Positions 2,093 to 56,085 of a stretch of DNA of 64,000 bases are shown piece by piece; within the stretch, counting starts at the first letter, position 1; each line of letters starts with the position of its first letter. Made by a program: the position numbers and the translations under genes. Origin of the DNA: Minisyncoccota bacterium (GTDB taxonomy: Bacteria; Patescibacteriota; Minisyncoccia; Phycocordibacterales; PALSA-1337); NCBI GenBank assembly GCA_017991475.1, contig JAGOQK010000001.1, positions 105,689-169,688 on the forward strand, in the 5' to 3' direction. The notes under the pieces were generated by a model. The model was given only the letters and a program-made list of their open reading frames with translations, was not told the DNA's origin and ran no database searches.

Positions 2093-4936
2093 TTACTGCG
2101 TCAACACTGCCCTGACTTTTAAATTATCCCCAAGAGATGCTGGAGTGTACCTAATGTAGGTTGTTTCATTTCCCTTGTCTGTCGTATTGTAAGCACCCCA
2201 AGATGTACCATCAGTAGATTTCTGCCATGTACCACTATTCGTACTAGTCGTGTAATCATCGAGCAGAAGATCTTCTGTGACTGCATTATAAAGTCTGATT
2301 CGTAACGTAGGAACTGTTCCACCGAAGGTAGTCGCAAATCTCCAAACAAACTGCTTGGCTGCAGCATTTGATTTTACGACTGATGGTTGATAGTGAGAAT
2401 CCGTTTTATTTACCGCATCATCATAGACGACGACTATACCCATAATACGAGCAGGTACACACGACCACCCTATCGTATCAAACTCAAACATAAACTGTAT
2501 TCGAGGTGAACTGGCAAGACTTGAAAGGTCGCCGTCACGTGGAACAAGTGACCATTCTCCAGTATCTGTCAAAATACCTTTTGTTCTGAAATATATCTGG
2601 TACGGTTCTGTATTCACAAGAATTTCTCCCGTGCCCAACTGATCAGTATGAAAAATATTCACACTACTAAATTGTGCACAATCTGTCGTATAAAGAGCGG
2701 GTGTTATAACTCGCTGATTTGTGGTTGCTGCATACGTGGAGTGTGCTGAAAATGGCAGTGCATACATCTGTGATAATGCCGCAGTCACACCATGCTTCAC
2801 AATATGAACAATACCATTCTGACTCCAGATAGATGCCAGCTGAGATGACGTACTGAAATGTGGTTCTGTGCCACTATTCCAATCGATTACATAGGCTGAG
2901 CCGGCACTAATAGTTCCCGCTGTCGAACTCAACGTGATTGAAGTTATAGAAGTAAAAGCAGAAATCGTGAACCATGAAACTATAGCTGTAGGATCAGTAG
3001 AACCAAAACCGATACGAAAGCCAACCATAGCAGCTGTAAAAAATGTATTAGTACCAGTAACTGCCGTACCAGAAACCGCAACAGTACCTGAGGAAATATA
3101 TGCATTACCGAGCGCAAGAATTTGATCTTGTTGTTTGTCGTCAACGCCCCAGATATGATCAAAGGGAGAACCACTCAGATCAGGATACTGGGTAACATAA
3201 TGTCTGAGACCTGTGGCTCCTGTGGTGAGCACAATGAGTCTATCCATTCCGTCTGCAATTTCCACAGAGCTGAGTGCTGATGATGCTGGAGTAGAACTGA
3301 CACCACCTGTCGGAATTTCAGCCAAATTCTCTGATATCCATCCATTATTCCCCGCATATATTCTGAATATTGAAGCACGATAGATACGAGTATGGGTGAC
3401 GAAATAGATAGAAATTATACCAGCACCTGGACCATGATTAAGTGTTCCAATTCTTCCGTTATTGACACCAGAAACTGTTCCGTTCACAAGCTGTGGACCC
3501 GTACAGATGACATCAGCCGAATCAACTATGAAATTTGCTCCTGCACCTATCGTTCCAGCCGATGATGAAAGTGTTATTGAAGTTGTTGATGAAAAAGCAG
3601 AAATTGTGTACCACGTAGTGACATTCGCAGGACTTGTCGTTCCAAAACCAATTTTCATTCCAACCATTGCAGCGGTGAATGTCGTTCCACTTCCTGTGAC
3701 AGCTGTTCCCGTCACCTCGACAGTTCCGGTGGTATAGTACTCAATTGACATGAGCATCTTACCAGAAGTAAGAACACCTGTTGCTCGCAGATTATAACGG
3801 TATACTTTCAAATAAGTTGATCCAAAACCATCTATTACATACGCGTAATGAAGACCCTTATTAATTTCAGGCTCTATTGTCAATCCACAAGGGGTGATAT
3901 TGGTAACCACATTTGCTGTGGTACCAGCATCTGAAAGCCAATAGACTGCCTTGATGTTATCCGTGGTTGTTGCAAATGCGACAGTAGTCGTACCATTTGT
4001 AGTAAAATCAGAATAATTTACACCCTTAACCAAGTGTAATCCACCATTTGCGGCGGTGGTAGCATTTGTTGTAGTGATAGCAAATCTCAATTCTTCAATT
4101 ACATACGAACTCCCTGCACTGACTGTTCCTGCTGTCGAGGCAAGCGTGATACCCGTCTCACTATCAATACTAGATATCACATACCACGATACGATGGCAG
4201 TAGGATCAGTAGAACCAAAACCGATACGCGCTCCGACCGCCAACCCTTCCGTTTGCCACAATGTATCAGTACCTGTAACAGCAGTTGCTGCTACTTCGAC
4301 AGTTCCTGTGGTGTGTAGATATCGAAGTGCTCTGAAACCACGAATTGTGTGCGCTGTTGCGGAATTGAGTGTGGCAGCAATAAAGCCTTTCCATGTATAT
4401 ACAGAAGTGGTTTTATTGTACTCATACATACTAATTTCTCTTGCAGCAACTGAAGCAATTGAATTTTCAATAAGAAATACCCAGTCTATCGTTGAACTGT
4501 AGGTCATGGCGTGCGGATACATCATGGGCGTGTTGTATACGACCACATAGGCAGTACCAGCCGTGACAGGAGTAGCACCTACCGAAGGTGATATAGTCAT
4601 CCCTGTTGTAGATGCGCGTGCTGTTATTGAATACCACGTAGTGATCTTCGCTGGATCATTTGAACCGAAACCGATAGACATACCTATCATGCTCGTCAGA
4701 AAATTTGTACCAGAACCAGTGACAGCAGTAGTAGTTACCTGTACTGTTCCTACAGTATCAACTACTTCCTGCATAGGAAGAGTAATTCCTACCGGCAGTG
4801 GGCCAACGAATTTGTCTTCAGGGTTTGAACCCGTATTCTGAATCATCAATGTACCCAAACACGTTTTTGTGTAGTCATAAGAAGCGATTGGTGTCGTCTC
4901 TCCGGTGAATGTATGTTTGACTGCGCGTAGTGCCAT
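2093..4936 (-). CDS. Giant repeat protein, paralog 3 of a tandem triplet (947 aa), function unknown
   Basis: The N-terminus (MALRAVKHTFTGETTPIASYD...GTLMIQNTG) and C-terminus (YIRYTPASLGDNLKVRAVLTQ) are conserved with the two upstream paralogs. Four internal ~75-aa repeats carry the motif GTVxVxGTAVTGxGTxF...IGFGSTDPTxIVSWY...ITLSSxAGT. No signal peptide. The stop/start spacing to the next gene is 1 nt. Confidence 0.8.
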   Translation of the reverse strand: MALRAVKHTFTGETTPIASYDYTKTCLGTLMIQNTGSNPEDKFVGPLPVGITLPMQEVVDTVGTVQVTTTAVTGSGTNFLTSMIGMSIGFGSNDPAKITTWYSITARASTTGMTISPSVGATPVTAGTAYVVVYNTPMMYPHAMTYSSTIDWVFLIENSIASVAAREISMYEYNKTTSVYTWKGFIAATLNSATAHTIRGFRALRYLHTTGTVEVAATAVTGTDTLWQTEGLAVGARIGFGSTDPTAIVSWYVISSIDSETGITLASTAGTVSAGSSYVIEELRFAITTTNATTAANGGLHLVKGVNYSDFTTNGTTTVAFATTTDNIKAVYWLSDAGTTANVVTNITPCGLTIEPEINKGLHYAYVIDGFGSTYLKVYRYNLRATGVLTSGKMLMSIEYYTTGTVEVTGTAVTGSGTTFTAAMVGMKIGFGTTSPANVTTWYTISAFSSTTSITLSSSAGTIGAGANFIVDSADVICTGPQLVNGTVSGVNNGRIGTLNHGPGAGIISIYFVTHTRIYRASIFRIYAGNNGWISENLAEIPTGGVSSTPASSALSSVEIADGMDRLIVLTTGATGLRHYVTQYPDLSGSPFDHIWGVDDKQQDQILALGNAYISSGTVAVSGTAVTGTNTFFTAAMVGFRIGFGSTDPTAIVSWFTISAFTSITSITLSSTAGTISAGSAYVIDWNSGTEPHFSTSSQLASIWSQNGIVHIVKHGVTAALSQMYALPFSAHSTYAATTNQRVITPALYTTDCAQFSSVNIFHTDQLGTGEILVNTEPYQIYFRTKGILTDTGEWSLVPRDGDLSSLASSPRIQFMFEFDTIGWSCVPARIMGIVVVYDDAVNKTDSHYQPSVVKSNAAAKQFVWRFATTFGGTVPTLRIRLYNAVTEDLLLDDYTTSTNSGTWQKSTDGTSWGAYNTTDKGNETTYIRYTPASLGDNLKVRAVLTQ

Positions 4937-4937
4937 A

Positions 4938-7373
4938 TTAATTTTGTGTTAAATGTGCCCTCACTGATATACCATCCGTAAGTGCCGAGGGGGTATATCG
5001 TATGTAGGTAATATCGTTGGTCTTATCGGTACTATTATACGCTGTCCAGCTAGCCCCGTCGTCTATTGATTTGTGCCATGTTCCATTGGCTGAAGCTGCA
5101 GTAGTATCAGTAAACAAAGACGCATCCGTCTCAGCATTAAATAATTCAATCTTCAAATTTGGAACTGTGCCACCAAACCCATGACAAAATCTCCATGCAA
5201 ATCTTTCATTTGTTGCATCGGAATGTACTGTCGAAAGCTGATAATGTGAGTCAGTCGATCCATCTTCATACGTCACAGCTATACGCATCACTCGTGCTGG
5301 TAGACATAATCTGCCGATAGTATAAAACTCAAGCATGAATTGAATTGCATTTGCTGGTGACACAGAACTGAGATCTCCATTCCCTTCAACGAGCACCCAG
5401 GAGCTGGTAGCATCTGACGCAATATCAGCAGTACGGTAGTACACCCGAAACGATTCTGGCGACAATCTGAGCTCACCTGATCCAAGATACCTATCTTCAG
5501 TCACAATCACTTGATCAAATTTTACACAACCTGCTGTTGCGAGCGATGGAGTGATGACACGCTGGTGATTTGCGGGTGATACTGAATATGCATAAGTGGC
5601 ATGTGCACCAAACGGTAATGAGTACATTTGGTTCAATTGGGCTGTTGCCCCATTCCTGGTAATATGAACGATACCATTACTCACATCCGCAGATAATAAC
5701 TGTGAACCTGTATTAAAATGAACCACACCTTGTGAGCTTAGAAGAGACTGATCTTGCTGTTTATCGTCAACACCAAATACATGATCGAAGGGGGTTGTAT
5801 CAGTGGCAGGATACCGCGTCACATACTGACGATACGCAGCGTTTGCAGCATACGTAGTAATCAACAATTTATCGATAGTCGGCATATACTGTACGTTTAC
5901 CATGTTTCCTGTCGCAGGGAATGTCGAGATTCCACCCGGAGGAATCTCCTGCCTGATATTTGCAGCTGTGATGAATGTCGTATTACCAGCTGTAATGAGA
6001 GAAACATCAACACAATAGAGTCGTGTGAGCGTTACAAAATATAAATAGGATGAGCCTGAACCTGGACCATGCGCAAGTGTTTCAACTGTGCCATTATTCG
6101 CTGAAAGGTTGGGTATTGTTCCTGTTACAGCTTGTGTTCCTGTACTGACAATATTTGCACCAGCGAGTGTCATCTTCCCTGCCGCAACAGCATCATTCGC
6201 CCTGAGATTATACTTGAATATGCGTGCATTTGTTGTGTTCGTACCGTTCAGAATATAAGCAAAATGACTTGTCTTACTTGTTTCAGCTTCCAAAGCCAAA
6301 CCGCTTGCTGCTGTGTTCGTAACTGTGGCCGCATCTGCAAGCCAGTACACACCTCTCTGATTATCGATATTACTCGCAATCGAGGGAAATGTGTTTCCAG
6401 CCGTCGTGAAGTCAAGGTGACTTGCTCCTTTAAGGAGAAATAGTCCACCGTTTGTTGATGTTGTGTTTGTAAGTGATATAGCAAACCTCAACTCCTCAAT
6501 CACATATGGGGTACCTGCAGGGACAACTCCAGGTGAGGTAGTGATGTTGAGGGATGTATCACTGGCAATAGCTCCGATCTGGTACCACTGAGTGATTTGG
6601 GTTGGATCCGTTGATCCAAAACCAATACGGGGACCGAGACCTCCAGCAACAGATGTTGAAGCAGTTCCTGCAGCTATACGATCAGCAACAAATGTTGTAC
6701 TTGTTCCCGTCACTGTACACGATGCGATGACGTAGTTTGCAGATGCGGCAATGGCGCTCGACGCACCAGAAACTGTAATTGAAAGTGTTGAGGTAAATGT
6801 GATGATCGGGTACCAACAATTGATCTGGGCTACGTTCGTACTCCCAAAACCAATCATTTTACCAACCATTGCTACAGTAAATGTGGTACCAACTCCAGTT
6901 ACAACACCCGTAACTGCGAGAGCAACAGAAGTTCCTGCTGCATAATAGCTTACTGGTGCTGCTACTGCGACGGTACCTGTTGTGTGGAGATAGCGGAGCG
7001 CACGAAAGCCTCTATTTATATTTGTAGCAAAAGGTGTCGTGGCAGTAATAAAACCATTACGAGTATAGACAGAATTAACCTTGTCATATTCATACAGAAA
7101 TATTCTTTTTGCGGCAGTGATAGAGTTTTCGAGCATGAATACCCAATCAACCGTAGAACTATAGGGGACTACGTGTGGAAACATCATAGCCACAGCTGTT
7201 GATTCTTCCATCGGTCTCGCTATCGCGACAGGAAGCGGTCCGACGAAATTCTCTTGTGGAGTCAAACCAGTTTTTTGCACCATCAAAGTACCCAAGCTTG
7301 TCTTGGTCGAATCGTATGAAGCGATCGGTGTAGTAGCTCCTGTGAAAATATGTTCGTTAACTCGTAGTGACAT
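4938..7373 (-). CDS. Giant repeat protein, paralog 2 (811 aa), function unknown
   Basis: Shares the N-terminal module (MSLRVNEHIFTGATTPIASYD), the central blocks (GFRALRYLHTTGTV; DDKQQDQ; LAHGPGSG; IQFMLEFYTIG) and the C-terminal module (YIRYTPSALTDGISVRAHLTQN) with the flanking paralogs. Confidence 0.8.
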   Translation of the reverse strand: MSLRVNEHIFTGATTPIASYDSTKTSLGTLMVQKTGLTPQENFVGPLPVAIARPMEESTAVAMMFPHVVPYSSTVDWVFMLENSITAAKRIFLYEYDKVNSVYTRNGFITATTPFATNINRGFRALRYLHTTGTVAVAAPVSYYAAGTSVALAVTGVVTGVGTTFTVAMVGKMIGFGSTNVAQINCWYPIITFTSTLSITVSGASSAIAASANYVIASCTVTGTSTTFVADRIAAGTASTSVAGGLGPRIGFGSTDPTQITQWYQIGAIASDTSLNITTSPGVVPAGTPYVIEELRFAISLTNTTSTNGGLFLLKGASHLDFTTAGNTFPSIASNIDNQRGVYWLADAATVTNTAASGLALEAETSKTSHFAYILNGTNTTNARIFKYNLRANDAVAAGKMTLAGANIVSTGTQAVTGTIPNLSANNGTVETLAHGPGSGSSYLYFVTLTRLYCVDVSLITAGNTTFITAANIRQEIPPGGISTFPATGNMVNVQYMPTIDKLLITTYAANAAYRQYVTRYPATDTTPFDHVFGVDDKQQDQSLLSSQGVVHFNTGSQLLSADVSNGIVHITRNGATAQLNQMYSLPFGAHATYAYSVSPANHQRVITPSLATAGCVKFDQVIVTEDRYLGSGELRLSPESFRVYYRTADIASDATSSWVLVEGNGDLSSVSPANAIQFMLEFYTIGRLCLPARVMRIAVTYEDGSTDSHYQLSTVHSDATNERFAWRFCHGFGGTVPNLKIELFNAETDASLFTDTTAASANGTWHKSIDDGASWTAYNSTDKTNDITYIRYTPSALTDGISVRAHLTQN

Positions 7374-7374
7374 A

Positions 7375-10026
7375 CTAGTAAAGTGTCAGCAATGATCTGA
7401 CTTTTATATTGTCAGGCAAGGTTGCGGGAGTATATCGAATGTATGTTGTTTCGTTTCCCTTATCTGTCGTATTGTATGCGACCCATGTCGTGCCATCAGT
7501 TGTTTTTTCCCAGGTACCCGCAGGAGTAGAGGAAATATCATCTACAAGTAATCCACCTGTCACCGCATCGAGAAGTCTTATTCTGAGTGTCGGTACAGCA
7601 GAACCAAATGCTGTAGAAAAACGCCAAGCAAATTGTTTGCTTGCAAGTACCGTCTTCCCTGCAGAGGGTTGATAGTGTGGATCAGTTGTATAATCATCAT
7701 ACAATACCGCGAGTGACATGATACGACCCGGAATCCCAAGAAGACTGATGGTGACAAACTCAAACATAAACTGAATATTAGAAGCTGGTGACAAACCAGT
7801 AAGATCACCGTCTGCAGCAAGCAGTGTCCATTCTCCACTATTATCTGTAATGCCGTTTGTTCGGTAATACGTAAGGATAGAAGCAGTCGGTACTCGAAAT
7901 TCTTCACTACCAAGGTGGTCAACTGTTGATAGTAGAACTCTCGTATACGCGGCACAATCGGGTGTTGAGAGAGTTGGAGAGATTATTCTTTGGTTTGTTT
8001 CTGACGCATGAACCCAATGTGCCGACAACGGTAGTGCATACAATTGACATAATGCTGCAGTTGTACCGTGTTTAATGATATGCGCAACACCATTTTCACT
8101 CCATACTGAAGTAATCTGTGATGCGGTGTTGAAGTGAATAGCTGTGTTTGGATCAGCTAGAGATTGATCCTGCTGCTTATCGTCAAGACCAAAGAATCGA
8201 CTAAACTGGTCACCGGCTGCATCAGGATACTTTGTGACGTAGTGCTTGAATGCCGTCGCACCTGTGGTAAGCACAATCAAACGATCGATAGCATCTGCAA
8301 TCTCAATCATATTGAGAGCTCCTGTCGCTGGGAAGGTACTCGCGGATCCTGGGGGGATCTCTGGGCGATTGTCGGATATCCAACCAAGATTTCCTGAATA
8401 TATATTTGATAATGCCGCTCGGTAAATACGGCTTGCTGTCACAAAATAAAGCGACAGCTCCCCAGCACCTGGACCATGATTGAGTGTACCGACACGGCCA
8501 TTGTTGGCACCAATCACAGTACCTGTGACGAGCTGATTTCCTGTACAAATGACGTCTGCACTATCGATAATGTACGATGAGCCGCCTGCAATGGTACCAG
8601 CCGATGAAGAAAGCGTGATTGATGTTGTCGAGCTAAATGACTCTATCGTGTACCAAGTGGTAACAGTAGCGGGACTAGTCGTACCAAAACCAATTTTCAT
8701 TCCTACCATCGTTGCTGTAAACGTAGTACCAGAACCCGTCACTGCTGTTCCTGAAACTCCTACTGTACCTGTCGTATAGTATGCAATTGACATCAGCATC
8801 TTACCAGAAGTGATCGTACCAGTCGCACGAAGATTGTACCTATACACTTTCATGAATGTTGCACCCACCCCGTCGGGTACATATGCATAATGAAGGCCTT
8901 TATTGATTTCTGGTAGCAGAGTAAGTCCACAGGCAGCTGTATTTGTAGCTACATTGGCAGTCGTTCCCGCATCACACAACCAATATACCCCTCGCTGATT
9001 GTCAATTGCACTTGCAATAGCGGGAAATGTTGTTCCAGCAGTTCTAAAATCATAAAAGCCCGCGCCTTTGAGTAAGAAAAGTCCGCTATTAGTAGTTGTC
9101 GTTGCTTGTGATATGGTGAACGCAAACCTTAGTTCCTCTATCACATAGGGCGTACCAGCAGGAACGACTCCTGGTGACGTGTTGAGGTTGAGTGATGTAT
9201 CACTCGCTATAGCTCCAATGTGATACCAGCTTGTGATCTGGGTCGGATCAGTAGAACCAAAACCGATACGGGGACCAAGACCTCCTACTGCTGCAGTAAC
9301 TGTCGTACCCGCGGCTATACCTTCTTCTACAAATTTTGTTCCTGTGCCCGTTACTACACACGAGGCAATAACATAGTTTGCAGATGCAGCGATGACACTC
9401 GATGCTCCAGAAACTGTGATTGAAAGTGTTGAGGTGAATGTAATGATCGGGTACCAGCAGTTGATTTGAGCTACGTTTGTACTACCGAAGCCAATCATTT
9501 TACCTACCATAGCAGAAGTGAATGTGGTACCTACACCAGTCACTATACCACTCACTGCAAGAGCCACAGAAGTTCCTGCGGAATAATAGCTCACTGGTGC
9601 TGCAACAGCGACTGTGCCAGTGGTATGAAGATACCGGAGAGCACGAAATCCTCTTGTTGTGTTCGCATTTGCGGCACTCGGCAACGTTGCAGTAATAAAA
9701 CCCTTCCAATTGTATGTTGATTTTGTCTTATCATACTCATACAAGAAAATTTCACGGGCTGCCGTTGCTGTCGCAAGGTTACGAGTCACAAAAACCCAGT
9801 CTATCGTAGAGCTATAAGTTAGGACGTGAGGATACATCATACCAAGCGCAGTAGTTTCCTCAGCTGGTCGTGCAATACCTACAGGGAGTGGTCCAGCCCA
9901 ATTATCCTCAGGATAGGTTCCTGATTTTTGGACCATCAACGTACCTAAATTTGTCTTAGTAGGATCATAAGACGCTATAGGTGTTGTGGGTCCGTTGAAT
10001 ATATGTTCGACTGCGCGTAGTGCCAT
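7375..10026 (-). CDS. Giant repeat protein, paralog 1 (883 aa), function unknown
   Basis: Same conserved N-terminal, central and C-terminal modules as its paralogs, and the same IGFGSTDPT..W[YF] repeat units. Its first ~330 aa are nearly identical to paralog 2. Confidence 0.8.
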   Translation of the reverse strand: MALRAVEHIFNGPTTPIASYDPTKTNLGTLMVQKSGTYPEDNWAGPLPVGIARPAEETTALGMMYPHVLTYSSTIDWVFVTRNLATATAAREIFLYEYDKTKSTYNWKGFITATLPSAANANTTRGFRALRYLHTTGTVAVAAPVSYYSAGTSVALAVSGIVTGVGTTFTSAMVGKMIGFGSTNVAQINCWYPIITFTSTLSITVSGASSVIAASANYVIASCVVTGTGTKFVEEGIAAGTTVTAAVGGLGPRIGFGSTDPTQITSWYHIGAIASDTSLNLNTSPGVVPAGTPYVIEELRFAFTISQATTTTNSGLFLLKGAGFYDFRTAGTTFPAIASAIDNQRGVYWLCDAGTTANVATNTAACGLTLLPEINKGLHYAYVPDGVGATFMKVYRYNLRATGTITSGKMLMSIAYYTTGTVGVSGTAVTGSGTTFTATMVGMKIGFGTTSPATVTTWYTIESFSSTTSITLSSSAGTIAGGSSYIIDSADVICTGNQLVTGTVIGANNGRVGTLNHGPGAGELSLYFVTASRIYRAALSNIYSGNLGWISDNRPEIPPGSASTFPATGALNMIEIADAIDRLIVLTTGATAFKHYVTKYPDAAGDQFSRFFGLDDKQQDQSLADPNTAIHFNTASQITSVWSENGVAHIIKHGTTAALCQLYALPLSAHWVHASETNQRIISPTLSTPDCAAYTRVLLSTVDHLGSEEFRVPTASILTYYRTNGITDNSGEWTLLAADGDLTGLSPASNIQFMFEFVTISLLGIPGRIMSLAVLYDDYTTDPHYQPSAGKTVLASKQFAWRFSTAFGSAVPTLRIRLLDAVTGGLLVDDISSTPAGTWEKTTDGTTWVAYNTTDKGNETTYIRYTPATLPDNIKVRSLLTLY

Positions 10027-10760: not shown

Positions 10761-11741
10761 TTATACTTTGAGATACCTTCGAGCGGCAACGTAGCTCGCC
10801 AATCCCCCCACTACGACACCGAGACCCATTATGAGCAGAAATATCTGTGTGAAATTGGCCACGAAATAGCGGGAAAGGATATTCACTGCAAGCTCGAAAT
10901 CTGCTGCAACCTGAACACCAGCGAAACGAAGGACCAAAACATCACTCCAGTATGCAACTGCTGCCATACAGATGAGCGCTATGGTGCCTGACAATATGCC
11001 GTACATGACTCCAGAAACCACGAGCGGACCGCGAACGTAAATGTTACTTGCTCCTACAAGCTTCATGACGGATATCTCATCTTTCGAGGTATATACGATA
11101 AGACGAATAGTATTCCAAACGACCACAATCGACACTAATATTAATATGAGAGCTATAACAGTTCCCGCCTGCTCTACTGCAGGAATAATGCGCCCGAGAC
11201 GGTCAATAATAAGTTTGTTCTGTTGATAGTTGACCTTCTCGACTATCGGGTCACCGGAAGCATCTACAGGTGCCTTATTTTCAAGAAAATTTGCGATACT
11301 TCCATACTGACCAGGATCTTTGGCTTTGATATTGAGAACCGCAGGAAATGGGTTGGTGCCGATCTCGTCGAGACCCTGCATAATGAGGGCATTACCTTGC
11401 CACTTCTCTGAAAACTGCTCGAGAGCGAGATCACGAGAGACATACTCGACACGAGAAACCTCTGCGAGTCGTTCGATATCCTTCTTGAGTGACAAAATAT
11501 CATCTTCAGGGGCTTCGAGAGTGAAGTAGACATTGATATCAACTTTCTCCTTCACATCGGCAATAAGGCTCTTACTGAACGCTCCTGCAAATATAATGCC
11601 GCCCACTGTTACGAGCGATAGTGTCATGACGACAACTGCAGCAAATGACAGGAAGCCATTGCGCCAGAAATTGACGAAGCCTGTACGTGTAATTCTTTTA
11701 AAAGTGGTAAATATCATAAAAATGCAAAATTTAAAAATCAA
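10761..11741 (-). CDS. ftsX: Cell division ABC-transporter permease FtsX (the true start is probably an internal Met)
   Basis: Four-TM topology with a large periplasmic loop, the conserved KLVGA motif, and the usual position immediately downstream of ftsE. Confidence 0.8.
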   Translation of the reverse strand: MIFKFCIFMIFTTFKRITRTGFVNFWRNGFLSFAAVVVMTLSLVTVGGIIFAGAFSKSLIADVKEKVDINVYFTLEAPEDDILSLKKDIERLAEVSRVEYVSRDLALEQFSEKWQGNALIMQGLDEIGTNPFPAVLNIKAKDPGQYGSIANFLENKAPVDASGDPIVEKVNYQQNKLIIDRLGRIIPAVEQAGTVIALILILVSIVVVWNTIRLIVYTSKDEISVMKLVGASNIYVRGPLVVSGVMYGILSGTIALICMAAVAYWSDVLVLRFAGVQVAADFELAVNILSRYFVANFTQIFLLIMGLGVVVGGLASYVAARRYLKV

Positions 11742-13981: not shown

Positions 13982-14044
13982 ATATCGCACCAGTCGCATC
14001 AGTCTAGCAAAAAAGCATAAAAACACAAGAATGACCCACTAATG

Positions 14045-14118
14045 TGTCGGCGGAAGGGATCGAACCTTCGACCTTGGGCTTATGAGTCCCACGCTCTAAC
14101 CAACTGAGCTACGCCGAC
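14045..14118 (-). tRNA. tRNA-Met elongator (anticodon CAU; the Ile2 lysidine type cannot be excluded)
   Basis: Acceptor GTCGGCG/CGCCGAC with a G1-C72 pair, anticodon loop CTCATAA, T-loop TTCGATC. Confidence 0.7.
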
Positions 14119-14217: not shown

Positions 14218-14289
14218 CGCGGGGTAGGGTAACGGTAACCCGTCAGGCTCATAACCTGAAAATTGCTGGTTCGATTCCGGCCCCCGCAA
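14218..14289 (+). tRNA. tRNA-fMet initiator (anticodon CAU)
   Basis: C1xA72 mismatch at the end of the acceptor stem (CGCGGGG/CCCCGCA) and discriminator A73; anticodon arm TCAGG-CTCATAA-CCTGA; T-arm GCTGG-TTCGATT-CCGGC. Confidence 0.7.
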
Positions 14290-14298
14290 CAAGTATTG

Positions 14299-34014: not shown

Positions 34015-34054
34015 CTAGTGCCTGTGCATAATTTGGAAATTTACCCGTTCGTTG

Positions 34055-34141
34055 CGGAGAGAGTGGGATTCGAACCCACGGTTCTCTTGCGAGAACGGCG
34101 GTTTAGTAAACCGCTGCCTTAAACCACTCAGCCATCTCTCC
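34055..34141 (-). tRNA. tRNA-Ser, type II (long variable arm), apparent anticodon ACU
   Basis: Acceptor GGAGAGA/TCTCTCC, discriminator G73, anticodon arm GCGGT-TTACTAA-ACCGC, 19-nt variable arm, T-arm GTGGG-TTCGAAT-CCCAC. Confidence 0.7.
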
Positions 34142-34226: not shown

Positions 34227-34313
34227 GGAGACGTGGTGGAGTGGTCTAACATACCTCTTTGCTAAAGAGGCAGGCCTTAACGGGCCTCGAGGGTTCGAAT
34301 CCCTCCGTCTCCG
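34227..34313 (+). tRNA. tRNA-Ser (anticodon GCU), type II
   Basis: Acceptor GGAGACG/CGTCTCC, anticodon arm CCTCT-TTGCTAA-AGAGG, long variable arm, T-loop TTCGAAT, discriminator G. Confidence 0.8.
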
Positions 34314-34384
34314 CAACACCGTTTGCTCAGCCTGAGATGTGCGCTATGATATCACCATACTAGCCTAGATAACCTCATATCATC

Positions 34385-39032: not shown

Positions 39033-39929
39033 CTATTCCCAGGAATCTATGCAGAGAGGGGTGGCGTAGTTTGAATTATTCACCGCGGTGTCGACGCCGA
39101 TCAGCGATATGCAAAATGGCGGAATGAAACCACGAAGCTCCCAGGCTGTTGGAGTCAATGTCACATAGGTATTATCGACAGGGATAGCTGAGATATTTTT
39201 ATTTTGCGTATATACGCCCGTGCCTTGATTGTACTTATAGAACGTATATCTTTGAATTGATTGACCCGGATAGGTGGTAATCGAAGGAGACCAGGTAAAG
39301 GTGGCTGTAGGACCAAACTCCATTGAAAATTCATAACTCAAATTACTTGGAGCACTCACACTTGGGAGCGGAGGTATCACCGCCGCATAACTGTTTGATG
39401 ATCCGTTGTTTCCGCTCGGAACAGTCTGTCGTTCCATCGGAGCATATACCTGATAGGTATCGTCTGAGGCCGTGCACTCTCCCCCGTTGTCACAATAGTA
39501 CTGCACAGCCAGTGGCGCGACATAGGTATATCCTATAGGAAATTCACTCGACGAGGAGACGCATGATCCTTTGCATGGATCATCGGGTATTTTGATGAAC
39601 TCTTCCAAGGCATCTCTGTATGCAATCCAATTGTTATGCTGCAAACTACCGACTTCCGCAGTCGACACCGCGAAGCACGCTGAGGCGGCTTGCTCATCCG
39701 GAGTACTCTCGGAAATCTCATCGCACCCTGTTTGATAAAGCGGAGGGGTTTTCTTGTATGTATCCACATACATCTGCGTCGCCAAGTCTATCTGCTTAAT
39801 CTGCTGAGTACGGACTGCATCACGACCGTTTGCTTGAGCGAGACTTATTTGGACCATAACGACACTGGCGAGCATCGAGACGATGGAGATCACCACGAGC
39901 AGCTCAACGAGAGTGAATGCGCGTTTCAT
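39033..39929 (-). CDS. Large prepilin-type protein (298 aa) with N-terminal cleavage/methylation signal
   Basis: MKRAFTLVELLVVISIVSMLASVV at the N-terminus; long Cys-containing C-terminal domain. Confidence 0.7.
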   Translation of the reverse strand: MKRAFTLVELLVVISIVSMLASVVMVQISLAQANGRDAVRTQQIKQIDLATQMYVDTYKKTPPLYQTGCDEISESTPDEQAASACFAVSTAEVGSLQHNNWIAYRDALEEFIKIPDDPCKGSCVSSSSEFPIGYTYVAPLAVQYYCDNGGECTASDDTYQVYAPMERQTVPSGNNGSSNSYAAVIPPLPSVSAPSNLSYEFSMEFGPTATFTWSPSITTYPGQSIQRYTFYKYNQGTGVYTQNKNISAIPVDNTYVTLTPTAWELRGFIPPFCISLIGVDTAVNNSNYATPLCIDSWE

Positions 39930-40016
39930 GAAGTGATTATATCACTCCACATGAGAATCTGCTGGGGACAACCCGAGATGCGTCATCTCGGAGCAGTCCT
40001 CCGGAAGGACAACCTG

Positions 40017-40090
40017 TCCGCCCTCTTGGATTCGAACCAAGGACCCCAGAGGTATAAGCTCTGTGCTCTAACCAACTGAGCTAAGGGCGG
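40017..40090 (-). tRNA. tRNA-Ile (anticodon UAU)
   Basis: Acceptor CCGCCCT/AGGGCGG, D-arm GCTC-AGTTGGTT-AGAGC, anticodon arm CAGAG-CTTATAC-CTCTG (TAT at positions 34-36), T-arm CTTGG-TTCGAAT-CCAAG, discriminator A. Confidence 0.75.
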
Positions 40091-40146: not shown

Positions 40147-42075
40147 CTAGGCAACCGTCTCCAATTTTTTCTTGAGCGGTATGCCATGTGCTGTAATAAG
40201 AGACTCGTACTCCTCGCGTTCAATAGTCTCCTTCTCGATGAGTCTCTTCGAAACGAGCTCGAATGCGACCTTATGATCGGCAAGTACTTTCTCAGCAATA
40301 CTGCGTGCCTCGGTCATGATGCGCGATACTTCAGCATCTATCTCGGCTGCAACTTTCTCGGAATAATCCCGATCGTTCACACCTGAACCGAACAACACCT
40401 TACCTGACGCACTCTCGAGCGCGACCGGACCAATCTTCTCCGACATGCCATACTGCGTGACCATCGCGCGCGCCAGCGAAGTAGAGACTTGCAAATCATT
40501 GGATGCGCCCGTCGTGAAATCACCGTATATAAGGCGCTCAGCAACATATCCACCAAGAGATACGGCGATGTCATCCAGGAATTCACGGCGTGACTGAAGC
40601 TTGCGATCCTCGAGCGGCAACTTGAGAGTATATCCTGCGGCACGCCCACGTGAGATGATCGATATCTTGTGGACAGGATCAGCGTGAGGCAGTACCGACG
40701 CTACTATTGCATGGCCAGCCTCATGATACGCAGTGATCTCCTTCTCATGAAGACTCAGGATGTGGCTGCGGCGCTCAGGACCGAGCATGACTTTCTCGAT
40801 AGAGCGAATGAGGTCGAATTGGCCTATCTCGGTACGATCTTCACGGGCAGCAAGTATAGCCGCCTCATTCATGAGCGATGCGAGATCAGCTCCAGAAAAT
40901 CCTGGTGTACGCTCCGCGATCACTCCAAGATTGACATCCTCCGCGAGCTTCTTCTTGGCAGCATGTATCTTGAGGATATCCTGACGATCACCGCGGTCTG
41001 GTACATCTATGACCACACGACGATCAAATCTTCCAGGGCGGAGGAGCGCCGGATCGAGCACGTCAGGACGGTTCGTAGCGGCCATAACGATAACTTTCAC
41101 ATTGGGCTCGAAGCCATCCATCTCCACAAGGATCTGGTTCAGCGTCTGCTCCCTCTCGTCATTGCCACCACCCATGCCCGTACCACGAGCACGGCCAACA
41201 GCATCGATCTCATCGACGAAGACGATTGCAGGCGCTGCTTCTTTGGCCATCTTGAAGAGATCACGAACGCGAGACGCTCCGACTCCGACGAACATCTCGA
41301 CGAACTCTGATCCTGATATTGAGAAGAATGTCACTCCAGCCTCCCCTGCCACTGCGCGTGCCAGTAATGTCTTACCAGTTCCCGGGGCACCCATCAGAAG
41401 CACACCCTTAGGTATTTCAGCGCCAATCTCGATGAATTTCTTGGGGTTACGAAGGAAGTCGACGATTTCTGCGAGCTCTTGTTTCGCTTCTTTTGCACCA
41501 GCAACATCCTTGAATGTGATTTTGTTCTTTTTGTCGTCAAATGCAGTGATGCGCGCCTTGGACTGACCGAACGACATCGCCTGCACACCAGCCCCTTTCA
41601 CCTGACGCGAAAGCATCCATATAAAGAAGACGAGGAATAAAATCGGTGCGAGGAATGGGGCGAGTTGACCAAGCCAATATCCTGCGCCACTTGGGTCATT
41701 GATTGCAATAGTTGTCGAAGCAAGTCGTGCCTGCGAAACACCAAACGATGAGAGTGTCTCAACAATGGATGCCCCACTCTCCTTTTGCGAAGATTTGGAT
41801 GTCTTGTCCGCATATTCAGCGACGATACTGTCGCCCCGAACAGTAATAGACGAAACTATGCCCTGTTCAACATCTGCAGCAATAGTCGACAATGGCACGC
41901 TCGGCGACGCGATTGATTGCGCGGAAAATTCCGCATAGATGCCGGCGATGAGCAGGAATGAGAGTACCGCAATAATAACAGTCATCGGGAAACTCATACG
42001 GGGCGGCATAAATCCACGACCTTTCTTGTCTGGCTGACGGCCACCTTGCTGATTTGGTGAAATATTGTCTGGCAT
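40147..42075 (-). CDS. ftsH: ATP-dependent zinc metalloprotease FtsH
   Basis: AAA+ Walker A (GAPGTGKT), second region of homology, zinc-binding HEAGHAIV, N-terminal TM segments. Start trimmed to MPDNISP; about 642 aa. Confidence 0.9.
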
Positions 42076-42184
42076 GGGTTGATTATGTAAAGTATGTTGA
42101 TTATACAGAAAAGCGCTGTAAATGGAAGAAAAAAGCGCATCTACAGTTTGTAGATGCGCGTGAAAACAAAGGTACAGCAAGAGA

Positions 42185-42550
42185 TCAGAGGATTGCAATT
42201 TTACAACTTATGACCCGACCAGGGGTCGTCGACAAGAGGTATTTGTAGCGATGGTGTCTGATCGAATACCACCGGGCACGGACAATCTTGAGATATGCCT
42301 TAACAGCGATAGGTTTTCCCTTGTCCATACAACACTGTCCGTTGCAGCGCTGACGAGTGGTGCAGTCGACTCGGTAAAAACCATCAGCATCGGGGCCTCG
42401 ATTCATATAGAGCTCTCGTTCATGCCAGCGCTCAATATTACGACTGAAACAGTGAGTGCACCGTCGATTGAATCGACGGTACCACTGAAATATCATGCGA
42501 AACAGCACGATTACGGCTATCAAGACCAGAATCAAGTATCCATATTCCAT
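42185..42550 (-). CDS. Hypothetical small membrane-anchored Cys-rich protein
   Basis: N-terminal TM helix followed by basic residues, then CTHC...C...C...CC. Strand choice over the overlapping plus-strand ORF is tentative. Confidence 0.3.
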   Translation of the reverse strand: MEYGYLILVLIAVIVLFRMIFQWYRRFNRRCTHCFSRNIERWHERELYMNRGPDADGFYRVDCTTRQRCNGQCCMDKGKPIAVKAYLKIVRARWYSIRHHRYKYLLSTTPGRVISCKIAIL

Positions 42551-42574
42551 AACGCGTCCTTTCGTTGGGGGTTT

Positions 42575-43063
42575 TCAGGCCATCTGCGTAGCGAGCGGCG
42601 CGGTCGGAACAACCTGCTTCGGATTGATAATCCGCATGAGCGCGTTATAGATGATGAGGAACAGATCCTGTGAAATAATCCCTCGGGCAGATTTGGATGC
42701 ACGGAGAAGATTCTCGCGAACTGAGACTTCTTGGTCATACTGGGCGCCGTTGAAAAGTAGATACCCATCGGCACAGCCAACCTTCTGAAGCTCTTCCACC
42801 ACCTCGAAAGCCGCGAACTTGACGCTTGTTTCGCAGACCGCGTAGTTCGGAGGGGTTCGGTACTTGATCTCACCATCGTGGACCAAGCAACAATACAACC
42901 CGTCTTCCGTGTCACCCATAAAAATAATGGGTAGGAACTGTGACTGGTGCTGCCGCTGATTGAGAACGAATGCTTTTACCATATGCTTTTCTCTTTCTTT
43001 TGTTGAGTGTTTCGTTGTTGTGAATGTATCTCTAAAACCGTATTTCCGCATAAAAGTATACAT
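42575..43063 (-). CDS. Hypothetical protein (start is probably the internal MVKAF Met)
   Basis: 162-aa ORF located between ftsH and ssrA. No motif recognised. Confidence 0.45.
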   Translation of the reverse strand: MYTFMRKYGFRDTFTTTKHSTKEREKHMVKAFVLNQRQHQSQFLPIIFMGDTEDGLYCCLVHDGEIKYRTPPNYAVCETSVKFAAFEVVEELQKVGCADGYLLFNGAQYDQEVSVRENLLRASKSARGIISQDLFLIIYNALMRIINPKQVVPTAPLATQMA

Positions 43064-43091
43064 TGTTTGGAATGATAAGTCAAGTAAATAA

Positions 43092-43120
43092 AAAAGACTG
43101 GAGAAGTCCAGTCTTTTTAT
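43092..43120. terminator. Bidirectional intrinsic terminator adjacent to the ssrA 3' end
   Basis: AAGACTGGA-gaa-GTCCAGTCTT stem flanked by A-runs and T-runs. Confidence 0.65.
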
Positions 43121-43126
43121 TTGTTG

Positions 43127-52923: not shown

Positions 52924-55900
52924 TTAGTACCCGAAGAAGTACGCCTTAAAAGTATCGACCAAAGCAGCTGTGAGTGTCGGTCGTCTCATAGGATCAATAA
53001 CATCGTTGAAGTTCAATCCGACATACGAGGTCTTGAAGCCGTCAAGACTTGTGTATGTATTTTCAGGTATAGAATCATCGGCCACACCCCACTTGATGCC
53101 GGTGAGCGAAGTTCGGTATTGTCCGGCAGTATACGTGCCGCCGAGCTGGACATTGACTGTCAGTGTGAAGGTTTCCGATGTGCCTTCTTCTATAACAAAG
53201 TTTCCTGTGGATGTCTTGGTCCAATCCGTATCATTTGTGATGACAGCCGATATTGCTGACGCAGCCACGGGTACGCCTGCCCTGTCAACGATGTAATTCA
53301 CGGCCATATTGGTCGCTGACGGGATATAGACATCTCCACCATTCGCTGTCACCTTGTATTTAATTCTGAATATGCCTGTATCGTCATTAGCGCCGGTTCC
53401 GGCCGATACCGTGGTGTCGGCTGAAATGAACTGTGCCACAACACTCGGTTGTACGGACGCAAAATCCACATAGAACACGAGGTTGCTCGTGCCGAGAGTC
53501 TGAGCGCCCGTTACGGTCGGTCGCTTGGTCGTATCTGCCCCTGTCGGGAATGATCCATACCATCGTGCAGCGTATGTTCCAGGGCCACTCGATGAAACTG
53601 TACGAGAACAAGTACCCGAGACCACACCCTTCGGCGTCGACAAACTAACGGCACAAGCGGACGGAATTTCGTTCACAGCGAGCACTCTGCCGTCGAGGCG
53701 AGATATGATCGAAACTGTTGGTGTAGATGGAGCTGGTGTTGTTGAGGCTGACTTGAAATCAACATAGAAGGTGACCGGATTCTCGCCCGCTGGACGATTG
53801 CCCAGGAAGCGGACTGGAGTTATTGTTGGTGCTTTGGTCGTATCCGCACCTGCGGGATATCCATTTTCCCATTTAAGTGTATATGTCCCCGCTGACTGGT
53901 TGGTCAGACTTCGCGCGCACCCAGCGGTATTGCTACCAGAAGGACCTGTGAGGGTCGATACGCACGGAGCGGCATTCGAGGGATTGAGCGCGCTTCCGTC
54001 GAGGCGAGTGATGATATTGATAACACCAGAAAACGGCGCAACTGCCGACGACACCACGTTCAGAGATCCACTCGTAAGTTTCGTGCCGCCGCTACTGTAT
54101 ACCGTGACTTCATACTTGCCTGCGTCGAGCGCGGGCGATACCGTCACTGACCATTTTCCACTGGTTACCGGTATCAATCCACTGCCATATACCTTGCCTC
54201 CGCTATTACTCAACACGACACCGACGCCGGTATTTCCGCTTACCGTTCCACTGATGACAGGATTCGAGGAAGTAGTTTGTGTATCACTAGTAATGGTTGC
54301 TGATGACTTAGGATTACTTGAAACAACATTGATATACGCATCACTCGTATCCCTTACATCTGGATCACTTTCAAGAAAAACGATTGTCCTGTACAGGCCT
54401 GGCACCAGCGTAAGTGCTGTTCCCGGACATTTATACCCGGCAACTAGACTCAAATTTATGGAGTTAGCATAACTTGAAATACTGCCAATCCTACACACTG
54501 CACCGCTTGGAAACTCTAGCCCTGTCCACAGCACTTGCTCTGGCTGATTGGCCAAAGTTTGGGATGACCACCTCAAAGGAATCGTCTGTCCGAGAGCGAA
54601 TGACTCTCCGCCATTTGGTGAAATAATCGTGAGGTTCGATGAGTACGATGGGATGCATGTAGCATTGACACTAGCTCTTGTGATTGCGCCAAAATAGCCG
54701 GTAGCCTCGACCCCGATGCTTTTCTGATACTCCTTTAAAGCTTGGAATGTTGCATAACCGAAATATCCCTTATTCGCACTACTACCGAGAGTCAGGTCCC
54801 CAATAGTGAACCCCTTTGCGAGCAGAAAATTCTGCAGATTTTCTACATCCTTGCTTCCACGGACATCGCGAGAACCTAACCGAAGATCTCTGGTAAAAGT
54901 ATAGCAAGGGGTAGGAGTTCCGTCATTTTTTATTTCAAAGAATAATGGGTTACTCCAGTCACTATCATTCGTTGAGGCTGCAATATAGTAATCCCCATTC
55001 GGAAGGATTTCATCGCCGGGTAAAACAAATGATATTTCTGAGCCTATACTACTTGGCACTTCAGAAATCTGATAAATTGAATTATTATTACTATCTCTTA
55101 TCTCAACCCAATTATTCTCCAATGAAAAACCTTGGCCAGATATTTTTATTGTCTGACCTTGTTTGGAAAAGAGATTACCTAATGCGGCGAGTTGATTTGC
55201 ATTATTTGATACTGCGGTGGTGTCATTTATAACGGGAGATTTCGCTGCGAGTATAGGATTCCCTGATTTAGCTATTTCATAGCGCAATAAACTACCACCA
55301 TCTTCACTAACAAATTTAGGTGTTACATCTGTTACTGAATTTCCTTTTGCAACAACTTTTTTTACACACTGCTTCTTATTGCACAATAAAGGAATAGTAT
55401 CTACTTCGGTATACCTGTTATCTCCTGACACAATAACTTGACCAGGTTCAGAAATTTCACCAGAAATACTGAGGATATTTACATATTTCTTATTCGGGTC
55501 TCCGCCAATAAAAGCAAGGGACGTCTTGGATGATGCTGATTTTTTAGTAATAATCTCCTCTTCTATATTAATGCTTGTTCCATAACTTCTTTTAATCAGC
55601 TGATTCAAACTACCCAGGAGACTCTGCCCTCCATAGGAAGTGATTGAATCTGGTCCATCTTGTATTATCGTCTCCGTGTCACAAGATATACCCCCATTTC
55701 CCTTTTGAACTTTAGTAAGAATACTACCGTTCCACGAGGAACCTGTAGTGATTTTCTTATTTTCACACATATGCTCGGTCGTAAATGATGCAGTATAAAG
55801 TCCAACAAAAAGACTACTTCCGGTATCATTTTCTGCCAAAAGCTTTGCGAGAGCCAGCTGATCCTTTACACTAAAGGTTCCTTTACTAGTAAAACTACCA

Positions 55901-56085
55901 GATGTGTTTGGTGCTTGAGATATGATATTAGTAGTTTCACTCAGAAATGCATAATTTAAAAATACTATTGATTTAGGCACATCGGTCACCTGTGCTCTCA
56001 CCTTCTGTGGCACACTAGCTACAACAAACACCGCCAGCGAAAAGAGTGCGAGCGGGATGATAAACGAACCGAGTAATTTTTTCAT
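52924..56085 (-). CDS. Large secreted protein (1053 aa) with a putative peptidoglycan-binding domain
   Basis: Signal peptide MKKLLGSFIIPLALFSLAVFVVASVPQKVRA. A central PG_binding_1-like segment (YTFTRDLRLGS...LQNFLLAKGF...GYFGYATFQALKEYQK). Ser/Thr/Gly-rich beta-type repeats in the C-terminal half. Confidence 0.65.
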   Translation of the reverse strand: MKKLLGSFIIPLALFSLAVFVVASVPQKVRAQVTDVPKSIVFLNYAFLSETTNIISQAPNTSGSFTSKGTFSVKDQLALAKLLAENDTGSSLFVGLYTASFTTEHMCENKKITTGSSWNGSILTKVQKGNGGISCDTETIIQDGPDSITSYGGQSLLGSLNQLIKRSYGTSINIEEEIITKKSASSKTSLAFIGGDPNKKYVNILSISGEISEPGQVIVSGDNRYTEVDTIPLLCNKKQCVKKVVAKGNSVTDVTPKFVSEDGGSLLRYEIAKSGNPILAAKSPVINDTTAVSNNANQLAALGNLFSKQGQTIKISGQGFSLENNWVEIRDSNNNSIYQISEVPSSIGSEISFVLPGDEILPNGDYYIAASTNDSDWSNPLFFEIKNDGTPTPCYTFTRDLRLGSRDVRGSKDVENLQNFLLAKGFTIGDLTLGSSANKGYFGYATFQALKEYQKSIGVEATGYFGAITRASVNATCIPSYSSNLTIISPNGGESFALGQTIPLRWSSQTLANQPEQVLWTGLEFPSGAVCRIGSISSYANSINLSLVAGYKCPGTALTLVPGLYRTIVFLESDPDVRDTSDAYINVVSSNPKSSATITSDTQTTSSNPVISGTVSGNTGVGVVLSNSGGKVYGSGLIPVTSGKWSVTVSPALDAGKYEVTVYSSGGTKLTSGSLNVVSSAVAPFSGVINIITRLDGSALNPSNAAPCVSTLTGPSGSNTAGCARSLTNQSAGTYTLKWENGYPAGADTTKAPTITPVRFLGNRPAGENPVTFYVDFKSASTTPAPSTPTVSIISRLDGRVLAVNEIPSACAVSLSTPKGVVSGTCSRTVSSSGPGTYAARWYGSFPTGADTTKRPTVTGAQTLGTSNLVFYVDFASVQPSVVAQFISADTTVSAGTGANDDTGIFRIKYKVTANGGDVYIPSATNMAVNYIVDRAGVPVAASAISAVITNDTDWTKTSTGNFVIEEGTSETFTLTVNVQLGGTYTAGQYRTSLTGIKWGVADDSIPENTYTSLDGFKTSYVGLNFNDVIDPMRRPTLTAALVDTFKAYFFGY

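Follow-up and report, generated by a model that had tools for sequence, protein, structure and literature searches.

The window, by which we mean the whole stretch of 64,000 nucleotides that we analysed, carries a gene for a tRNA-Ile with the anticodon UAU on its minus strand, beside the protease gene ftsH. The features of this locus are as follows.

40017 to 40090, minus strand: tRNA-Ile, anticodon UAU (ARAGORN, Rfam RF00005 and reading of the sequence)
40147 to 42075, minus strand: ftsH (NCBIfam TIGR01241, 776 bits)
42076 to 43125, no strand assigned: stretch from ftsH to the tmRNA gene, upstream of ftsH, with unconserved open reading frames (ORFs) only and no TilS-like sequence

The window holds nine RNA genes overall, among which ARAGORN places a tRNA-Ile with anticodon tat at 40016-40090 of the minus strand, and the Rfam tRNA model RF00005 matches 40017-40090 of the same strand over its full length with 69.4 bits (E=4.6e-13; gathering score 29). 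The RNA is 74 nt long. Its 5' part reads CCGCCCU-UA-GCUC-AGUUGGUUA-GAGC-A-CAGAG-CUUAUAC-CUCUG, and its 3' part continues after CUCUG with GGGUC-CUUGG-UUCGAAU-CCAAG-AGGGCGG-A. These segments form a regular cloverleaf, in which the anticodon loop is C32-U33-U34-A35-U36-A37-C38. The discriminator is A73, and CCA is not encoded in the gene. An unusual C1-G72 forms the first pair, as it does in most clade members. In the window and in most relatives the acceptor stem contains C4-G69 and C5-G68. Because the anticodon stem CAGAG...CUCUG is palindromic, it is identical on both strands, while the tRNA is formed by the minus strand only. The earlier note on this DNA had read the arm CAGAG-CUUAUAC-CUCUG and its UAU correctly, and the strand, which it left unsaid, is minus. 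The minimum-free-energy fold of this single sequence is not a cloverleaf. Such folds usually depart from the cloverleaf in tRNAs, and we preferred evidence from covariation.

The tRNA gene lies 56 nt downstream of ftsH on the same strand, and the gap between the two in the window contains neither a terminator-like site nor a strong promoter-like site. Co-transcription of the two genes is therefore plausible from the sequence. Among species-representative genomes, the best matches to the FtsH protein come from Candidatus Taylorbacteria and Parcubacteria MAGs (78%, 76% and 69-73% identity), with the next matches at 55% and below. At least 120 FtsH protein clusters are 75% or more identical to it and, where named, are assigned to Taylorbacteria, Parcubacteria, Paceibacterota or Minisyncoccia; the clusters listed all lie above the 55-68% range in which outgroup Parcubacteria with an ancestral CAU tRNA might have been met. 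NCBI taxonomy places Taylorbacteria within the Parcubacteria group of Patescibacteria, and we accordingly read the source of the window as an uncultured, ultra-small bacterium of the Parcubacteria (CPR) that is Taylorbacteria-like. The window also contains the housekeeping genes ligA, recG, fusA, smpB with tmRNA, infC, prfB, gatA and rpsL/rpsG, as well as a type IV pilus cluster and a Trp/Tyr-type tRNA synthetase. Upstream of ftsH, the three ORFs at 42076-43125 matched no NCBIfam family and had no homologues in the other clade loci, and this region varies between relatives.

Several other features of the window were observed. Downstream of the tRNA, a pilin-like gene (39033-39929) carries a prepilin N-terminal methylation motif. 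Its extended -10 box, TGATATAAT (39929-39960, minus strand), ends ~7 nt before the ATG, which suggests that the mRNA is leaderless or nearly so. On the minus strand at 2093-10026 lie three tandem ORFs of 947, 811 and 883 aa, with similar N-termini (MALRAV.H.F.G.TTPIASYD...). None of them matched an NCBIfam family, and they are lineage-specific paralogues. A 1053-aa ORF at 52924-56085 is likewise without a family match.

Conservation and covariation of the tRNA

To follow the gene beyond the window, we used relatives that had been chosen by their FtsH, independently of the tRNA. In all nine (L001-L008 and L201), tRNA-Ile(tat) was found just downstream of ftsH. The FtsH proteins of L001-L008 are 69-78% identical to the window's, and L201 is a 618-kb contig. 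In L201, ARAGORN also called a tRNA-Thr(cgt) at 10956-11033 of the minus strand, within the ftsH coding region and on the opposite strand to it, and this call is most likely a false positive. Among 65 clade loci, 47 have ftsH beside the tRNA; the tRNA follows ftsH on the same strand at a distance of up to 1 kb in 37 of the 47, and nine have it on the opposite strand. Compared with the window's FtsH, the tRNA-linked FtsH proteins are 52-100% identical, so the association between ftsH and the tRNA is old and reaches well beyond Taylorbacteria proper.

Metagenomes were scanned with a tRNA pattern in which position 34 could be C or T, while C38 and this D-arm were required. At least 120 loci matched, and among the matches listed 85 have T34 and 35 have C34. 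At least 55 of the T34 loci (47 distinct sequences, 361 kb) share the tRNA body of the window at 78% identity or more, while none of the 35 listed C34 (CAU) matches has this body, the best of them reaching 74% identity. Position 34 is T in the window, in L001-L008, in L201 and in all 55 listed metagenome loci with the same body. As all of these genes, more than 60, have T34, there is no cytidine from which TilS could make lysidine.

The stems of this tRNA change in concert. In an alignment of 32 distinct homologues, cloverleaf pairing holds in 99.9% of cells, and 15 of the 21 stem pairs show changes on both sides, that is, compensatory changes. None of 500 shuffled controls reached the observed covariation values, and a control with a slid alignment was likewise far off. 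The loop CUUAUAC and A73 do not vary in the alignments. For the loop and the D-arm, constancy is informative in the nine FtsH-selected genes only, as the search pattern itself fixed both in the metagenome members. A35, U36, A37 and A73 are thus all invariant, and they are compatible with Ile identity. The pattern of change indicates that purifying selection acts on the tRNA and keeps its anticodon loop unchanged. We conclude that tRNA-Ile(UAU) is a genuine gene, neither an error nor a relic: the tRNA-Ile with UAU that the earlier note had placed at 40017-40090 is borne out by ARAGORN, by the Rfam match of 69.4 bits and by covariation.

CAU tRNAs, tilS and other tRNAs of the clade

Two divergent tRNA genes with a CAU anticodon lie at 14.0-14.3 kb of the window.

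14044 to 14118, minus strand: tRNA(CAU), read as elongator tRNA-Met (ARAGORN; Rfam, 69.7 bits)
14218 to 14290, plus strand: tRNA(CAU), read as probable initiator tRNA-fMet (ARAGORN; Rfam, 64.6 bits)

The minus-strand gene has the acceptor stem GUCGGCG/CGCCGAC, A73 and an A31.G39 mismatch that closes the anticodon stem. E. coli TilS recognises C4-G69 and C5-G68, and in place of these pairs the gene has G4-C69 and G5-C68. Its acceptor sequence resembles that of the GGCGGNG-type CAU tRNAs found in the metagenome scan, which we take to be of the elongator-Met type from their likeness to Bacillus subtilis tRNAMet. Elongator Met is therefore the best reading of this sequence, in line with what had been proposed for the minus-strand CAU tRNA before. 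The plus-strand gene, which the earlier note had missed, reads CGCGGGG...CCCCGCA-A. It has a C1xA72 mismatch, a hallmark of bacterial initiator tRNAs, and for this reason we read it as a probable initiator, although its anticodon stem is closed by only two of the three G-C pairs that are canonical there (A29-U41, G30-C40, G31-C39), and it has G11-C24 instead of A11-U24. No sampled clade locus contained a further CAU tRNA beyond this pair of a probable initiator and an elongator-Met-like tRNA.

In eight metagenome loci from other phyla, a CAU tRNA lies immediately upstream of tilS (L094, L107, L108, L112, L114, L124, L146 and L196). These tRNAs have an elongator-Met-like body, with the acceptor GGCGGNG or GGCTGGG and the loop CUCAUAC, and where the contig continues the order CAU tRNA-tilS-ftsH recurs (in L124, tRNA at 3701, TilS at 3711-4805 and FtsH at 4968-6926). 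We considered these eight tRNAs as candidates for tRNA-Ile2 and dropped them, their acceptor stems and loops being elongator-Met-like.

The order tilS-ftsH provided a place in which to look for tilS. In outgroup FtsH loci (Actinomycetota, Chloroflexota and Dormibacterota), a PP-loop gene is located just upstream of (hpt-)ftsH, and three of these genes are TilS by NCBIfam TIGR02432 (141-156 bits). We built a TilS HMM from 17 outgroup TilS sequences and ran it without filters (--max). In the 2.5 kb upstream of ftsH it found TilS in 43 of 51 outgroup loci, but in none of the 21 clade loci that have at least this much upstream sequence. Between ftsH and tmRNA in the window, the HMM, NCBIfam and blastp were all without a match to a tilS remnant. 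The gene is thus missing from the neighbourhood where it is most conserved. Across the window, L001-L009 and all 65 clade loci, ~569 kb in total and mostly the same ~2-6% of each genome, the HMM had no match either. From this sample of a few per cent per genome, we consider it fairly probable that both tilS and a CAU-type tRNA-Ile2 are missing genome-wide. No IleRS was present in the window or among the ORFs of at least 500 aa in the clade loci.

Another tRNA of the window also has an uncommon wobble base. At 34054-34141 on the minus strand lies a tRNA-Ser with the anticodon ACU (A34; loop UUACUAA), which adjoins a divergent tRNA-Ser(GCU) at 34227-34314. It is present as a separate paralogue in six more clade loci (L006 14871-14960, L007 17240-17329, L087 4725-4814, L101 5601-5688, L128 10258-10345 and L194 2667-2755). 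Bacterial tRNAs with A34 other than tRNA-Arg(ACG) are very rare. Inosine would misread AGA (Arg) in this split box, so A34 of tRNA-Ser(ACU) is presumably unmodified. In the window genes AGU is twice as frequent as AGC (13.8 versus 6.8 per 1000).

Readings of the tRNA and the meaning of AUA

AUA accounts for 21% of the Ile codons in 16 window genes, at 15.1 per 1000 codons overall, but for only 3 of 51 Ile codons in EF-G. These figures indicate a frequently used codon that is served by a minor tRNA. For comparison, a frequency above 10 per 1000 has been termed 'high', and that of E. coli is 4.9 per 1000 (PMC12514573).

We think it likely, on balance, that tRNA-Ile(UAU) is the functional minor AUA decoder of a deep Parcubacteria lineage, in which it would most likely replace tRNA-Ile2(CAU) together with TilS. 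Independence from TilS is supported by the lack of a TilS match in the ~569 kb, by the contrast between clade and outgroup loci upstream of ftsH (0 of 21 versus 43 of 51), and by the precedent of nine bacterial species in three clades that are without tilS and have tRNA-Ile(TAT) (PMC3575796).

It is also quite possible, if not what we expect, that decoding is redundant, with tilS and tRNA-Ile2(CAU) kept elsewhere in the genome and tRNA-Ile(UAU) serving as an extra AUA decoder. Both systems are documented together in Lactobacillus casei, L. plantarum, Cyanothece and Ferrimonas (PMC3575796), and TilS is regarded as near-universal in bacteria (PMC12514573). The sampled clade sequence is a small and mostly identical part of each genome, and the metagenome pattern, with its C38 and this D-arm, would miss a tRNA-Ile2(CAU) with a different body. 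However, if the tRNA were a dispensable duplicate, some genomes should have lost or mutated it, whereas it is kept in all nine FtsH-selected genomes and its loop is invariant down to 52% FtsH identity. The high use of AUA, the small size of these CPR genomes and the lack of TilS in its usual place beside ftsH also speak against redundancy.

The metagenome scan also returned other UAU tRNAs. Some belong to dense arrays in which 9-15 tRNAs, most of them with U34, are clustered (L099, L111, L135, L141, L162, L183 and L185). Most of these contigs are low in GC (0.31-0.38), with L141 at 0.53, and the arrays look like phage tRNA clusters. Given such arrays, UAU tRNAs cannot be called rare in sequence from the environment. 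In other matches, which also have UAU, the anticodon loop is directly followed by an insertion (L093, L097, L100, L104, L110 and L116, and also L141 and L153). These look like intron-containing, eukaryote-type tRNA-Ile(UAU) from aquatic metagenomes, and most of them went uncalled when ARAGORN was run in bacterial mode.

The presence of UAU tRNAs in phage-like, low-GC arrays (L099, L111, L135, L162, L183 and L185) would fit a recent horizontal acquisition of the window's gene, for example from a phage tRNA array; alternatively, an error of assembly or sequencing could have made a CAU gene appear as this one. In either case it would have no meaning at the level of the lineage. We regard this as very unlikely, since the same tRNA is found in more than 60 independent assemblies with conserved ftsH synteny and compensatory stem changes, and the array-type UAU tRNAs are only 58-73% identical to it.

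A reassigned codon, with the UAU tRNA charged with Met or another amino acid and AUA no longer Ile, as in many mitochondria, is the least probable reading of all: the D-arm, variable loop, T-arm and C38 are indeed as close to elongator tRNA-Met types as to tRNA-Ile2 (judged against the metagenome matches and E. coli and B. subtilis sequences), but MetRS depends on C34, and the AUA positions of nine ftsH genes carry Ile, Leu or Val in 70 distant homologues. The latter result comes from a comparison of 144 AUA positions, in well-aligned columns of nine clade ftsH genes, with 70 outgroup FtsH proteins. At these positions the outgroup residues are I (34.5%), L (22.4%) and V (17.2%), and Met is outside the six commonest. 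AUU and AUC positions have the same outgroup profile, whereas AUG positions have M at 29.5%. Because the profile of AUA is that of AUU/AUC and not that of AUG, AUA is read as Ile, and reassignment to Met is excluded. The tRNA calls, the synteny, the covariation and this codon alignment together uphold the alternative AUA-decoding strategy that had been suggested for this DNA, with a UAU tRNA serving AUA as Ile.

A candidate decoding route and its known counterparts

If tRNA-Ile(UAU) is the AUA decoder that we propose, its path may be outlined as follows. The tRNA would be transcribed together with ftsH or directly after it, and its CCA end would be added enzymatically. IleRS would charge it and must then accept U34; we infer this charging because the UAU anticodon, A73 and A37, the site for t6A, all suit Ile identity, and because MetRS needs C34. 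A37 is probably t6A, which would aid isoleucylation. On the ribosome, an unedited U34 would pair with the A of AUA. Misreading of AUG through a U-G wobble would be held down by competition from tRNA-Met, together with the ribosome or the tRNA itself, and one may speculate that the invariant C32/C38 is a candidate element for tuning AUG rejection. The tRNA could have arisen by a C34-to-U change in tRNA-Ile2(CAU) or in elongator tRNA-Met; its body resembles both, and between these two origins the sequence cannot decide.

A bolder possibility, which we offer tentatively and think rather unlikely, is that the lineage, deep and spread across the globe, has dispensed altogether with TilS, which is regarded as essential in bacteria, and decodes its split boxes with exact-match tRNAs (UAU for AUA, and the A34 tRNA-Ser(ACU) for AGU), while the C32/C38 loop or changes in the ribosome keep AUG from being misread. 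If so, this would be the largest natural group living without lysidine.

Decoding by tRNA-Ile(UAU) is already known, and its attribution to a CPR lineage appears to be unreported in the searchable literature, in which we found nothing relevant on lysidine, tilS or tRNA-Ile(UAU) in CPR, Patescibacteria or Parcubacteria. An Ile-TAT gene would show to anyone running tRNAscan-SE on these MAGs. The earlier note's statement that a genomic UAU is known only from a few lineages was too narrow: 371 unique tDNA-Ile(TAT) sequences in metagenome data were already cited by Taniguchi et al. 2013 (PMC3575796), and UAU tRNAs occur here in phage-like arrays and other contigs. Bacterial decoding of AUA by an unmodified-type UAU is still called a rare exception (2026 preprint 10.64898/2026.02.03.703510). 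If a whole CPR lineage, and one abundant in metagenomes of groundwater and soil, relies on UAU, this exception becomes the strategy of a lineage. Experimental work on UAU decoding comes from one Mycoplasma, and the clade would add many natural variants of the tRNA, IleRS and ribosome with which to ask how AUA is told from AUG without lysidine. Annotation would be affected too, as completeness checks that rely on tilS, and tallies of CAU tRNAs, would be misleading for these genomes.

Among known systems, tRNA-Ile2(CAU) with TilS performs the same task, reading AUA as Ile without reading AUG, and the window's tRNA shares its C4-G69 and C5-G68 pairs. The clade differs from it in having T34 in more than 60 genes and no TilS in the sampled sequence. 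Lactobacillus casei, L. plantarum, Cyanothece and Ferrimonas resemble the clade in having a tRNA-Ile(TAT) gene, and these species keep tilS (PMC3575796). Bifidobacterium and Neorickettsia resemble it in having tRNA-Ile(TAT) at the level of a lineage, in bacteria said to lack tilS, and their decoding has been attributed to a horizontally acquired, eukaryote-type IleRS (PMC3575796).

The tRNA-Ile2(UAU) of Mycoplasma mobile is like the clade's tRNA in its genomic UAU, in its role as a minor tRNA-Ile reading AUA, in A37 (the t6A site), in its small genome and in that no tilS was found next to the tRNA gene. Experiments on M. mobile have established the absence of tilS, an unmodified U34, an adaptation of IleRS and rejection of AUG by the ribosome; in this IleRS, Arg865 replaces the Trp that contacts the wobble base, the E. 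coli counterpart being Trp905 (PMC3575796). Unlike that single, experimentally characterised species, the lineage described here is a deep and diverse environmental clade known from sequence, and its tRNA is distinguished by linkage to ftsH, by C1-G72 in most members and by an invariant C32/C38 loop.
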